From Eledone cirrhosa (Eukaryota): a stretch of 64,000 bases of DNA. Made by a program: the position numbers and the translations under genes. Within the stretch, counting starts at the first letter, position 1; every line of letters begins with the position of its first letter. A model generated the notes under the pieces. That model saw nothing but the letters and a program-made list of their open reading frames with translations. It was not told the DNA's origin and did not search any database. Positions 12,079 through 57,420 of the stretch are shown piece by piece. The stretch is from positions 86,916 to 150,915 of the forward strand of contig CAXHJY010000551.1 in assembly GCA_964016885.1 (NCBI GenBank), given 5' to 3'.

Positions 12079-12300
12079 GTAATAATAATAAATTTGTAGA
12101 CTAAAATCCAAAGAGGGCTCGATAAGGATAAATATATATCAAATATATAAGAACCGTAGAGCAAATATTTATTAAAATAACAGATTAAAGTTTAAGAAAA
12201 GAATCGCTGCTTTCACCCTTAACGGGATCTTCTGAAGATCCCGTTAAGGGTGAAAGCAGCGATTCTTTGCTTAAACTTTAATCTGTTATTTTAAGAAATA
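12079..12300. repeat. Family C fold-back (terminal part of the PLE pLTR)
   Basis: Matches 50873-51030; symmetry centre GATCTTC-T-GAAGATC at 12232. Confidence 0.9.
12232..12277 (+). ncRNA. HHR (family C) at the apex of a fold-back element
   Basis: CTGAAGA-tCCCgttaaGGGt-GAAA-GCA..TGC-TT-AAACT; the helix I 5' strand is shortened by the inversion. Confidence 0.65.
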
Positions 12301-13669
12301 TATATATATATATACGATATTAAACAAATGGAAACTATATTTATAAAACCATATTTGAAATAAATATGGTTTTATAAATATAGTTTCCATTTGTTTAATA
12401 TCGTTTATCTACTCCAAAAACTTGTCGAGTGCTTTATATCAGTTATAAAATATTTACTTGTTGTAACCCAACAATTTTAAATAAAACTTTTGCATATATA
12501 TATATATATATATATATTGGGAAATTTTGAAATCCAAACACATAGTCGCTACTGTAATGATAGCGTTAAAAACTCGAGTAAGATACTCTTAGAGATAGAA
12601 AAAATGTGGCTGCTCTATTATTCTTCAGATTCTCCGACTGTTATTACTGTAGATACAGTTTGTTTGGCTTTCAACCACTGAAACTTTCAAATCATCCAAC
12701 TGTTGCGATATAACAATATCGATTTCAACACACGATTTCACATGCATAAACGTATATATATATATATATATATATATATATATATATATACATATATATG
12801 TATGTATATATGTATATATATATGTATATGTTATGTGTGTATATGTATATATATATGAATGTATGTGTACGTATGTATGTATGAATGGATGGATGTGTGC
12901 ACATGTATGGGTCTATGAATATTTGTGTTTATATCTATATATATACTTATATATATATATATATATATATATATATATATATATATATATATATATATAT
13001 ATATAAGAGAAAGAGAGAGAGATATTTAGATATAAACAGAAATATTCATAGATCCCCATACAAATACACACACATATATAGCCATAAGTATATAAATATA
13101 CTCAGATACTTAGAAAGGAGGAATAAGTGATGTATACAAACACAAACAGACAAATGGCTGCGGTCGTTCAAGGTGTATAGGAAAGCCGTTGATGCGTGGT
13201 CGGCTTTCCAGAGACCGGTAGGTAAGAGCTTGTCACGGCTGGCCAGCTTTCAAAGAACAAGAAAGTAGGATTACAACTACATCAACAACCTCATAAACCA
13301 CAACAAAACAACAACATAAACTACTACTACTACTACTACTACTACTACTACTACTACTATTTTTCTTATCAAAAGCAATGGGAAATAAACCAGGCAACTT
13401 TCTAACAACAATATGGCCAGTTTAAGTTCAAGTGATCAACCACCCATCCACCCACACACTCAACTTCGAAGATAGTTGGATAGATAGATGGATAGATATA
13501 GAGATGTATAGCCCAGAAGAGATATACAGATATATACCCCAGAAGTCAGAGAGATGAAGCATTGGATAATATGATAAATCAAATGTAATAAAGCTAGTGG
13601 AAAAGGAAAAAAGAGAAAAGCATGAACAGAAAAAGGTTAAAACAAATGGTGAACGTGACAAAAACGCAA

Positions 13670-13790
13670 TAATTGTTTATATTTTTGGCACAAGACCAGC
13701 AATTATCCAGTGCATTACTAGTATTTTATTTTATCGACCCCGTAAGAATGAAAGGCAAAGTTAACCTCGGCGAGATTTGAACTCAGAACA
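13670..13790 (-). mobile_element. Meta-like SINE, 5'-truncated
   Basis: tttatcgacccc..gaaaggcaaagttaacctcggcg.gatttgaactcag. Confidence 0.75.
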
Positions 13791-14189
13791 TGACAAAAAA
13801 CACAATAATAACGAAACATTCCAATCTTCATGCGCATCCTCTAAGCTCAGGGTTTCTTCAATAGGTAAAGAGTAGGAAAACTATAGTTTCGAATCCTACC
13901 ACGACAGTACGTCCAAATTACGAAGGTATGGTTCGGAAGAGACGAACAACAGGTAGAACAGAATACCAGGATTGGCTGAAAAACACATAAGGTGACTCTG
14001 AAAAGGGATTATAGCGCTGTGAAATCTTGCATGAATTAATCTCAACTCCTCTTATTAATAACTGCGTTATTTTTTTTCTAGGTACTTTGTTGAAAAATAA
14101 ACCTCATTTAGTTATTCCTTGGGATATCTTTGTCAGCATATGTACTTTTCTGATTGGATGTCATACTGACAGAGAAACAAATAATTATC

Positions 14190-14376
14190 ATTATTTATAC
14201 TTTTGGTACAAGGCCAATTACCCAAGTGCATTACTGGTGCTTTATTTTATCGACCCCTTAAGGATGAAAGGGAAAGTTAACCTTGGCGGGATTTGAACTC
14301 AGACCACAAAGGGGCATAAATCTATACTGTAAAGCATAGCGTCCAACCCTCTACCGTTACTGCCAATCCACTGCCC
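14190..14376 (-). mobile_element. Meta-like SINE
   Basis: Full reverse-complement match, including head gccaatccac. Confidence 0.8.
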
Positions 14377-14383
14377 TTTTAAA

Positions 14384-14560
14384 TAATAATAATGTTTACT
14401 TTATTGACCAGGAAGGGTTTACATAAAAATACATTAAAGACAGCACAGGGCGGTACAATGTGGGTTTCTGCATGTATAAATGTGTATAAAACAAAGACAA
14501 AGTATGTAACAAAAAAAAACAAAAAAATAGAATCAAAAGAACTCAGAGCAACAACAACAG
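14384..14560 (-). mobile_element. 3' tail of a LINE (Tx1-like 3'UTR) with (ATT)n end
   Basis: Matches positions 1-62; T-rich UTR, AATAAA on the minus strand, (ATT)n tail. Confidence 0.45.
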
Positions 14561-14621
14561 CAACAACAAGATGATGAGTATAACGATAATGAAGATAATA
14601 TGTGGCTGAGTGGAAGATAAT

Positions 14622-54610: not shown

Positions 54611-54733
54611 TACATATATATATGTATATATATGTATATATATATATGTATATATATATATGTATATATATATATGTATATATATATATATATATATATA
54701 TATATATATATATATATATATATATATATATAT

Positions 54734-55190
54734 ATGGTGGCTGCCAACTCGTTTTCGAGTACGGCCACTACTTTATATCCATATAGGAGAACTTCTACCG
54801 ATGCGCTAAACGAGTGTGACTTTTTAGTCCAACCAGCGACTTGTAAACTCTGGTACAAATACGACACTTGTGACAATTATTGACACAGTGCTAGGCTCAT
54901 GGTACCATGTGATGACAAGTGCAGAGAGATCTCCAGATATAAAGCAATGCCTGTGCCGTGAAGCTTTTATAGTGAGCAAAGGCACTGCACAAAGCCAGTC
55001 CCACTTTCTTAACCAAGATGATATTTACCAAAAAGAAGAACAAGTCAACATCATTGGATACCATCAGGGTTGCAGGTGTTATATCAGAGTTTTCCTTCTC
55101 CTAGAATTCTGCCTTGACAAAGGCTAAGGGGTCATCTCTCCCAGTGATTTTGGATGGACATTGACTCTTAAGAGCTCCTTTGCCCTTTTT
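54734..55190. repeat. Family D, copy 3 (longest)
   Basis: Near-identical to copies 1 and 2 plus a ~130-bp right extension. Confidence 0.9.
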
Positions 55191-56160
55191 TATATATATG
55201 TATATATATATATATACATATATATATATACATATATATATATACATATATATATATATACATATATACATATATATATATATACATATATATATATATA
55301 TATACATATATATACATATATATATATATATATATATACATATATATACATATATATATATATATATATATACATATATATACATATATATATATATATA
55401 TACATATATATACATATATATATATATATATATGTATATATATATGTGTATATATATATGTATATATATGTATATATATGTATATATATATATATGTATA
55501 TATATATATATATATATATATATATATATATGTATATATATATATATATATATATATATATATATATATATTTATGTATATTTATGTATATATATATATA
55601 TATATATATATATATATATATATATACATAAATATACATTCTTTATATACACTCCGGAATACTGAAGGATCAGGAACTAAGTTTCTTGAACAATTCTTCC
55701 ATAACTCGTAGAGTAACCTCTTACCGTACGTCAACCATATCTAGTGTAGTAATTAACCATCACTGCATCTTGGATAATCCTATACCTAATATATATATAT
55801 ATATGTATATATATATATATGTATATATATATATATATATATATATATATATATGTATATATATATATATATATATATATATATATATATATATATATAT
55901 ATTTATGTATATTTATATATATATATATATATATATGTATATATATATATATATATATATATATATATGTATATATATTTATATATATATATATATATAT
56001 ATGTATATATATATATATATATATATATATATATGTATATATATATATATATATATATATATATATATATATATATATATTTATGTATATTTATATATAT
56101 ATATATATATATATATATATATATATATATATATATATATATATATATATATATATATAC
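55191..56160. repeat. Two interrupted (TA)n arrays around a short unique insert (55630-55790)
   Basis: Direct reading. Confidence 0.95.
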
Positions 56161-56925
56161 GTACACATATATAGGGAGTGAGTGAGAAAGAGAGAGAGAT
56201 AGATAGAGTTTATGAAATGAATGTATATTCATGACCAGGTATATAAACCTTTACGTCACATACGTACCTATATACTAAAGTTGAAACATTCACGAATACA
56301 AAGAGCGAGAATAACTGAGACGTAATTTAGTCTATTCCTTTTCTTTTTCCTTTTATTTCTCAATCTCTGTCACTATCTACAATTCCTTTGCTGTTATATC
56401 TAACTTTATTTTTCTCTCTCTCGCTTTCATTCTCTCTTTCCTCTCACCTCTCTCTATGTAGCTATGCCTCATGTTCTCTTAACTGTCTTTTCCAATACTT
56501 CTGCAGTGGTATATCTCTCTCTTTTTACCTGTCTGTCTCTCTTTGTCTCTCTCTGTCTCCCTCTCTCTTGGATTGTAAACAAACGTTTGTATAAGTTAAC
56601 AAAATTCCTTAACCTCTTTTTCAACTTTTCATCTCGTTGGTATTTCCGGAATGTCAACGCTTCTCCCTCTTCAGCCACTCAACCCTCAACCACAGCCACT
56701 GTATAGATACACATATGCATATACATACATATATATATATACGTTTGTGTGAATGTACACCTTTATACCTTTCAAGCTTTTCCCAGCCAATGACCACATG
56801 GCAATAACATACCTACAAGTCTATTGCGTAATCAGGTGAAAATTTTACACATATCTGAACAATATATATATATATATACATGTATATATTGTATATCATG
56901 GAAGAGTAATGTGGTCATCAGATAA

Positions 56926-56982
56926 GTGTCTTGTCTGATGATCCTGTGGATATACAGGTGAAATTTCCGATTAACAAGACAC
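56926..56982 (+). ncRNA. Type I HHR candidate
   Basis: GTGTCTTGT-CTGATGA-tCCTGTggatatACAGGt-GAAA-tttccgat-TA-ACAAGACAC; 9-bp helix I, imperfect helix III. Confidence 0.72.
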
Positions 56983-57202
56983 CAAGACTCATCATGATGC
57001 CATAATTAAGAATATTATTTCTTTACTACGCTCATGAGTTCTCTTTCTCGTGTCCGTCAACATCACACGGATACACGCACAAACACACACACCCACACAC
57101 ACGCACACACACACACACACACACACACACACACACACACACAAACACATAGGAACACACAAACACACGCTCGCACACACACATACACATATATATATAT
57201 AT

Positions 57203-57420
57203 AGTAATAATAATAAATGTGAAGACTAAAATCCGAAGAGGGCTCGATAAGGATAAATATATATCAAATATGTCAGAACCCTACAGCAAATATTTATTAA
57301 AATAAAATATTAAAGTTTAAGCAAAGAATCGCTGCTTTTCTTTTGAGTTTCAGAAGATCTCGTTAAGGGTCAAAGCAGCGATTCTTTGCTTAATCTTTAA
57401 TCTGTTATTTTAATAAATAT
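57203..57420. repeat. Family C fold-back
   Basis: Matches the pLTR end; inversion at the HHR GAAA. Confidence 0.88.

Follow-up and report, generated by a model that had tools for sequence, protein, structure and literature searches.

Penelope-like elements (PLEs) are found as inverted, 5′-truncated copies bearing a tail on one side only, which the portions of PMC8557442 and PMC3846280 drawn on here present as the general anatomy of the group. The origin of the tails and of the inverted ends is left open in those portions of PMC8557442; a partial answer comes from PAc, a Poseidon element of Anolis, in which two internal starts of the reverse transcriptase (RT) bound the tail in vitro and both target strands are extended (PMC11167929). 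The PAc protein was modelled as a dimer, and cleavage by the hammerhead ribozyme (HHR) was dispensable (PMC11167929). Here we analyze PLE insertions in a stretch of 64,000 nucleotides from Eledone cirrhosa (GenBank assembly GCA_964016885.1, contig CAXHJY010000551.1, positions 86,916 to 150,915 of the forward strand; hereafter the window), where one large element, 47565-51029, and three hairpins (A12, A30 and A57) make up family A. We propose, with a probability of roughly 0.6, that these are separate insertions of one Hydra-clade family in which two target-primed cDNAs, begun at two hairpins of the leader, aborted and were joined head-to-head. Positions within the family are numbered from the predicted HHR cleavage site (50914 = 0), and the insertions and their arms are as follows.

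12079..12299: hairpin A12; long arm antisense (+115 to −42, 12079-12236), short arm sense (−42 to +27, 12230-12299)
30572..30781: hairpin A30; short end on the left, long end on the right, with the HHR core present twice, around stem III
57204..57420: hairpin A57; long arm antisense (+115 to −19), short arm sense (−55 to +29)
47565..49569, minus strand: coding arm of the large copy; 5′-truncated Hydra open reading frame (ORF), 3′ untranslated region (UTR), HHR-like motif and short end at 47565-47568
49570..51029, plus strand: inverted arm of the large copy; last ORF codons, 3′ UTR, HHR-like motif (50874-50914) and tail to the long end
50544..50720: insertion resembling a short interspersed element (SINE), a later event within the inverted arm that left a 16-bp target duplication

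The initial annotation took the three hairpins for terminal pieces of the pseudo-long terminal repeat (pLTR) of a PLE encoding RT and a GIY-YIG endonuclease, and masked alignments and the common position of both ends bear this out. With microsatellites masked across the window, A12 (12079-12236) aligned to 51029-50872 at 96% (E = 4e-69), A57 (57338-57204) to 50895-51029 at 93% (E = 3e-51), and A30 (30595-30781) to 50871-51029 at 78% with gaps (E = 7e-41). Outside the microsatellite, A12, A57 and A30 were identical to the large copy at 152/158, 125/135 and 101/111 bases (91 to 96%), and alignment of all five segments, which had been suggested as a check, gave the same homology. The objection that the similarity is confined to low-complexity sequence fails because the 89-nt tail, stripped of (TA)n, scored 156, 141 and 129 against the three hairpins and at most 35 to 37 against shuffled sequence (500 shuffles each). 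Scores of 45 or more for this tail occurred at four places in the window, namely, the four family-A elements. The starts at 12079 and 30572 stand as first given; the third moves by one base, from 57203 to 57204.

The ends of the insertions are fixed. All four long ends lie at exactly +115 (..TTAC|TATA), and the short ends lie at +23 to +29. Each insertion has one end of each kind, head-to-head, with 88 nt separating the long from the short end. All eight ends fall 0 to 4 nt from a run of (TA)4 or longer, compared with 5.2% of other window positions lying within 8 nt of one. TA-flanked inverted arms of this sort resemble miniature inverted-repeat transposable elements (MITEs), and chimeric reads can yield palindromes, so the possibilities of a MITE, of a foldback DNA transposon and of misassembly at (TA)n arrays have to be weighed. 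Such an origin is highly improbable and is largely refuted by the anatomy: the arms are unequal and meet at three different junctions where a MITE would show uniform length and structure with matched terminal repeats, they are continuous with an RT ORF, and they differ from each other by substitutions (3/66 in A12 and 18/221 in the large copy). In addition, a later SINE with its own target duplication sits in one arm only, and the same anatomy recurs in independent contigs. Any target-site duplication of the insertions themselves would be hidden in the (TA)n flanks.

The junctions between the arms differ in all three hairpins. In A12 both arms break at −42, inside the HHR core, with a 1-nt spacer; in A57 the junction is −19/−55 and each arm carries sequence that the other lacks. 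A30 is rearranged internally: its junction is +7/−43, the core is duplicated in reverse around stem III, and private variants are common to both arms, reflecting either a secondary process that perfected the palindrome or fold-back copying. These junctions involve 3 to 8 bases of the HHR's own repeats or of T runs. In the large copy, the ORF arm ends at the short site and reaches approximately 1.5 kb past the long arm, and the 3′ UTR of the inverted arm holds a 594-bp low-complexity insert and a local duplication in addition to the SINE. The link between ORF and terminal sequence is nevertheless visible on both arms, because the inverted arm runs from the last ORF codons through UTR and HHR to the tail.

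Three different internal junctions mean that these are independent insertions and not one family of miniature elements, as the initial annotation had supposed; the hairpins are the large insertion with shorter arms, that is, independent truncated head-to-head insertions into (TA)n. It could be argued that the hairpins instead form a nonautonomous family resembling retrozymes or SINEs, with a short master RNA of its own and the Hydra protein acting in trans. Nonautonomous PLE derivatives are known (MRC1, in the part of PMC8557442 consulted; bioRxiv 10.64898/2026.07.22.740005, likewise in part), the three hairpins are all 210 to 221 bp long, and a tandem element of that kind, family D, is present in this window. 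We regard this origin as improbable given the three junctions, the lack of any tandem unit or of sequence foreign to the parent in the hairpins, and their layout as single head-to-head insertions where retrozymes form head-to-tail tandem units. The tails of the hairpins also differ from each other (7 to 11 of 91 positions) about as much as from that of the large copy (4 to 10 of 91), and equal size would follow if cDNAs stalled at the HHR stems.

A tblastn search with full-length relatives placed a 5′-truncated RT followed by a GIY-YIG endonuclease on the minus strand of 47565-49569.

48689..49567, minus strand: RT core and thumb with YRDD, 53% identical over 293 amino acids to P0002
47990..48600, minus strand: linker and C-terminal GIY-YIG, with CxCX5C, no CCHH, CxxC before the conserved E, and a frameshifted C terminus

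Among 1829 candidates, 205 longer relatives were recovered at E ≤ 0.001, the best of them 45 to 53% identical; their full length is about 700 amino acids, and the best match of full-length type was at 53%. Alignments began at residue 182 to 184 of 699 to 736, which leaves approximately the first 180 of 700 codons missing. Together with two adjacent in-frame stops in the RT (approximately 48884-48889) and at least three frameshifts, this makes the large copy a dead, nonautonomous element rather than the autonomous-type parent that had been envisaged. Pfam missed the RT and endonuclease pieces alike, and a PDB profile search gave no matches.

Nor is the large copy of Neptune type, as first annotated. 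Its linker motif is CxCX5C (CNCRNRVDC), with equal spacing in 57 of 69 near-full-length relatives, and the Neptune linker CX2-5CxxC, found in 1 of those 69, is absent. The endonuclease lacks CCHH; it has one Cys between VY and YIG, then CELCAAE, and CKH (CxH) in a shifted frame, and the CxxC of CCHH was seen in none of 54 parsable relatives. The RWK/DKT region falls in the missing N terminus; in the relatives it reads R[WF][KR] in 63 of 69 and DK[TS] in all 69. The (TA)n target is that of Hydra elements, and by eye the RT resembles the Hydra rows in the portion of the PMC8557442 supplement consulted. Judged on these sequence features, namely, the linker, CCHH and CxxC-CxH criteria in that portion of PMC8557442 plus the RT likeness by eye, we assign the large copy to the Hydra clade as a new family.

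The nature of the tail was resolved by comparison with 16 Hydra loci (L001 to L016) from one scan of public genome contigs; the presence of (TA)n arrays and PLE ORFs suggests that these loci are stretches of animal host DNA contaminating species-representative bacterial assembly bins. In L004 and L009, where full-length copies stand in tandem, the tail is seen to be the 5′ leader that precedes the ATG of the following unit; in the family-A tail no ORF start was readable.

50942..51029, plus strand: tail, 88 nt between short and long end, the inferred 5′ leader of family A
50946..50994, plus strand: leader hairpin 1, with GCTC...GAGC basal stem, 2-nt 3′ bulge and CCTCT 3′ flank

Six full-length leaders in the fetched loci each contain two stem-loops (RCTC...GAGY) separated by a spacer of 40 to 44 nt. 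In each, the basal stem is 4 bp long and reads GCTC/GAGC or GCAC/GTGC; two nucleotides bulge out on the 3′ side, the upper stem varies, and RCTYT flanks the hairpin 3′. The insertion ends lie beside these hairpins: in the fetched loci short ends fall approximately 4 to 8 nt 5′ of hairpin 1, and seven long ends fall 33 to 42 nt after it, just 5′ of hairpin 2. The same holds in family A, where hairpin 1 begins 4 to 5 nt after the short end and the long end lies 38 nt past the hairpin's 3′ box, a distance shared by all three long ends that were measured. Four of the five readable head-to-head insertions in the fetched loci have one long and one short end, and one has equal ends (L001, L008, L011, L015 and the palindrome L006:4835-4996 were excluded from this scoring). 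Two short insertions in L003 (4760-5040 and 5450-5860) have the long/short pairing, and the second of these has its pLTR in common with the ORF element of L016. One further locus, L015:1017-2205, holds a tandem and inverted tRNA-related array that ends in (TA)n; its geometry is PLE-like, and no HHR was found in it.

MAFFT misaligned the leader hairpins, and a two-box hairpin score was used in place of a covariance model. The score was trained on 16 of 18 fetched hairpins (the first hairpin of L007 and a duplicate copy from L004 were omitted), one of which, bearing a mismatch, scored nothing. On both strands of the window, eight of the ten top matches were tails of families A, B, C and G, the other three families being fold-back families of the same window; the remaining two were a long/short element at 4440-4598, which was the top match, and position 63304, close to a (TA)n end. 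In a test of hairpin position, p was below 0.005 in 9 of 17 loci, the anchor for family B being the fragment 32429-32489 and not the elements' own short ends. The plain RCTC...GAGY pattern occurred 20 times, compared with a mean of 12.5 and a maximum of 22 in shuffled sequence; this count alone is unconvincing, and the hairpin result rests on position. Basal pairs changed on both sides from G-C to A-U in 4 of 21 cases and from U-A to A-U in 2 of 21, and the two-sided change to ACTC/GAGT occurs in families B, C, G and L. By eye, the motif can also be seen in published Hydra consensus ends in the portion of PMC8557442 consulted (Hydra-2_Amil, Hydra-1_Ajap, twice, and Hydra-2_Ajap, with a GCCC/GGGC form in Hydra-1_Crog), and it was not seen in the displayed part of the Hydra-1_Obim consensus. 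Further matches to the score lie near (TA)n ends at 63185-63304 (minus strand), 9853-10040 and 10495-10682.

The family-A long-arm cDNA crosses the predicted HHR cleavage site, so the template must have been uncut or religated, as for PAc (PMC11167929). The initial annotation had the family sharing an HHR. A motif is indeed common to all four elements, and it departs from a canonical hammerhead.

47589..47644, minus strand: best-preserved HHR-like motif; type I geometry, A at position 4, U10.1-U11.1, cleavage triplet CUU

This copy has stems of 5, 3 and 5 bp in type I order plus a 6-bp outer stem I, and a descriptor scan returned it (at 47636) as the sole complete family-A motif; the other copies have extra lesions. 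Its HHR fold is not the minimum-energy one (−6.8 versus −12.2 kcal/mol), and free folding of the region was no better than that of shuffles in all four segments. The core reads CAGAAGA where CUGANGA is canonical, with A at the conserved U4 in all four elements; a seeming U4 in the short arm of A12 is the same base pair read from the opposite strand. Position 4 is U in all 26 Hydra rows in the consulted part of PMC8557442 File S2 and in 14 of 14 fetched cores, and the family-A motif has the U10.1-U11.1 and U17 of the Hydra type in that file. Natural core variants discussed in the text of PMC3088659, as far as it was covered, include none at position 4, where a backbone contact to U4 is described. 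A covariance model built on seven fetched HHRs (R1) gave no family-A match at E = 10; a second (R2), built on 27 matches including duplicates and a few doubtful rows, ranked five family-A arms 13th to 18th (E = 0.12 to 1.4), below the canonical HHRs of other families. Rfam reported no hammerhead in the window at gathering score, nor among 148 weak matches in 47400-58000, which is no test here because canonical hammerheads were missed as well. We take the motif to be an HHR-derived core variant and call it HHR-like only. Its spread with A4 would imply that the element can do without ribozyme cleavage in vivo or, alternatively, that A4 occurs naturally as a tolerated variant.

In the two-cDNA model that we favor, the template RNA would continue, uncut or religated, past the 3′ UTR and HHR of one tandem unit and on into the leader at the 5′ end of the following one, where two similar stem-loops would lie approximately 85 to 90 nt apart. 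The RT-GIY-YIG protein, probably a dimer, would nick both (TA)n strands; one 3′-OH would prime a cDNA a few bases 5′ of hairpin 2, giving the long end, and the other would prime a cDNA a few bases 5′ of hairpin 1, giving the short end. Both cDNAs would head for the 5′ end of the RNA and stop early, after which their 3′ ends may anneal through a few bases of microhomology and be filled in, leaving a head-to-head insertion with a one-sided tail. Insertion size would be set solely by where the cDNAs stopped: approximately 220 bp in three cases and, for the two arms of the fourth, 2 kb and 0.55 kb of native sequence. The model is favored because it explains the fixed ends, the variable junctions and the sequence unique to each arm on both sides, which is seen also in 4440-4598 and L003:5450-5860. 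More tentatively, each of the tandem leader hairpins may load one RT-endonuclease protomer, so that a dimer would prime both (TA)n strands at once, with the A4 core spreading alongside.

A single cDNA begun at the long end might instead prime itself by folding back and join the target at the AT-rich short site, with later deletions producing the asymmetric centers. Self-priming yields one long and one short end automatically, and in PMC3846280, in the part consulted, palindromes at inverted junctions are read in this way. The 1-nt spacer of A12 agrees with it, as does A30, whose arms share variants including a base past the short end, after a private 6-nt duplication; short ends are also more variable than long ones and overlap the target by 2 to 4 A/T bases. 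One self-primed cDNA is nevertheless insufficient without later deletion, because the arms of A57 and of the large copy each carry unique sequence. Against it, moreover, the ORF arm of the large copy and likewise the ORF of L016 end at the short site, the former approximately 1.5 kb longer than its long arm; in 4440-4598 and L006:6250-6397 a short arm abuts an arm made of tail alone, and the two hardly overlap; and the short end has the same small offset from hairpin 1 as the long end has from hairpin 2. We therefore consider self-priming unlikely as the general route, although it fits A12, A30 and families B and E and may act in some copies.

Several observations weigh against the two-cDNA model. 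The near-perfect palindromic centers of A12, B and E, and the private variants common to the A30 arms, are what fold-back copying expects, and L003:917-4762 has an identical end on both arms. Hairpin 2 of family A is a predicted structure. The positional test was weak in 2 of 17 loci (p = 0.03 to 0.04) and failed in 6 of 17 (C39553, G31090, H, I, K and D); long ends of families B, C and G lie 48 to 65 nt after hairpin 1, not approximately 38 nt, and in the two family-B elements the short ends are displaced upstream of the site beside the hairpin, by approximately 50 and 110 nt. Because the hairpins were selected for basal pairing, the percentage paired is circular, and folding z-scores of six leader or tail segments were not significant (−1.8 to +1.4). 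Finally, PAc showed no strand bias between its two start sites (PMC11167929).

The long/short pairing extends beyond family A. It was seen in all 12 inverted elements of the multicopy families A, B, C, D and G and in 17 of 20 fold-back loci overall (microsatellite pairs and pairs of opposite SINEs having been dropped before counting); the loci that did not fit were 2698-2848, 20417-20529, which is inside a long interspersed element (LINE) ORF, and 60968-61022, which is symmetric. The short arm reached further 5′ in approximately seven or eight elements, with three or four against, as judged by eye. The other elements are the following.

2090-2492, 33937-34339, 32429-32489, 6415-6870, 12316-12493 and 39567-39873: families B and C, mutually related, HHRs with long stem II loops
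51900-52858 and 41245-42152: family D, unit of approximately 470 bp with a canonical HHR
34447-36065: family E, 1.5-kb palindrome (98.7%), canonical HHRs, low-complexity AT body, no ORF
10717-10904, 31090-31262 and 10925-11092: families G and L, fold-backs of the long/short type that have the hairpin and decayed HHRs
4440-4598: long/short element, HHR short arm and tail-only long arm, head-to-head
60376-62130, plus strand: second Hydra copy, unrelated to the first (36 to 39% amino acid identity, no nucleotide match), 5′-truncated and decayed

Tails of families B and C end 62 to 65 nt after an ACTC/GAGT hairpin, and one family-C copy lies in the same (TA)n run as A12. In family D, 51900-52858 is an exact head-to-tail dimer whose first core is mutated, and 41245-42152 is an inverted long/short insertion across the unit junction. 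Family E is probably the youngest such insertion in the window. The element at 4440-4598 was missed by fold-back searches because it is not palindromic. The second Hydra copy has a degenerate HHR at approximately 61859 and a 55-bp symmetric hairpin in its linker (60968-61022), and fold-back K (60101-60378) adjoins its 5′ end.

The initial annotation read the family-A link as support for a PLE origin of the other fold-back families. None of these has more than 20 bp in common with either coding element of the window, so that origin rests on anatomy, HHR and leader hairpin. HHR models from the fetched loci matched families B, C, D and E, and the hairpin score matched B, C and G and, weakly, E and L; H, I and K showed the asymmetry without a significant signal. 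This indirect support thus holds for B, C, E and G, and for D by its HHR, but not for H, I and K. In all, 19 elements of family-A or related type occupy approximately 20% of the window, a figure that includes three loci of unproven PLE origin. Solo HHR-like motifs of other families were noted at 3727 (minus), 5542 (plus), 54503 (plus) and 56935 (plus), with 56927-56980 matching R2 at E = 0.001.

The window also contains an uninterrupted and possibly intact LINE ORF of 1145 amino acids at 17162-20596 (plus strand; Pfam Exo_endo_phos, RVT_1 and zf-RVT), with a decayed relative (66%) at 45231-46868. The SINE-like sequence of approximately 190 bp, for which no match to a named family emerged, has approximately 11 copies (50544-50720 and at 3111, 13668, 14187, 15292, 15970, 25524, 25805, 38018, 44624 and 62866). 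Two ORF fragments, 27755-28285 (plus) and 43529-44017 (minus), gave no Pfam matches; we take them to resemble a restriction-like LINE endonuclease and a DNA-transposon protein.

A hairpin that predicts both ends of an insertion makes PLE initiation open to direct test and provides a cis signal that could direct insertion to (TA)n. If true, priming by a hairpin-bound dimer would account at a single stroke for the PLE tail, for its presence on one side only and for the head-to-head structure. Hairpins of 200 bp pass for MITEs or unknown repeats, so the number of Hydra PLEs in genomes of this kind may be underestimated by repeat libraries. Neither the hairpin rule nor the A4 core turned up in the full-text literature searched, which held few subscription papers or Repbase reports and did not extend to figures; the words "hairpin" and "stem-loop" do not occur in the portions of the main and supplementary text of PMC8557442 covered, and neither the rule nor the core is in the main text of PMC11167929.

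Compared with known systems, family A is closest to the Hydra-clade PLEs in the consulted portions of PMC8557442, which likewise have CxCX5C, no CCHH, CxxC/CxH around the endonuclease E and N, YRDD, the (TA)n target, the HHR layout core-T...TGAA near the 3′ end, and inverted 5′-truncated copies with a one-sided tail. It differs by eye from Hydra-1_Obim in its HHR and flank, and its 88-nt tail exceeds the 30 to 40 bp quoted there. Neptune PLEs resemble it in their C-terminal GIY-YIG, Cys linker, microsatellite targeting and HHR and are set apart by the CX2-5CxxC linker and CCHH. The non-LTR retrozymes, as far as described in the consulted parts of PMC7229834 and bioRxiv 10.64898/2026.07.22.740005, are like the family-A hairpins short, noncoding and PLE derived, with type I hammerhead geometry; they form head-to-tail tandem units with an HHR, as does family D, whereas the hairpins are head-to-head with variable junctions. 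PAc parallels the proposed family-A route in its two starts bounding the tail, AT-rich target, extension of both strands and dispensable HHR cleavage (PMC11167929). It belongs to another clade, its starts lie in an AC-rich stem loop within the ORF, and no tandem leader hairpins or per-insertion pairing of long and short ends are described for it (PMC11167929). Within a known clade, family A is new as a family; structurally it is a textbook PLE.

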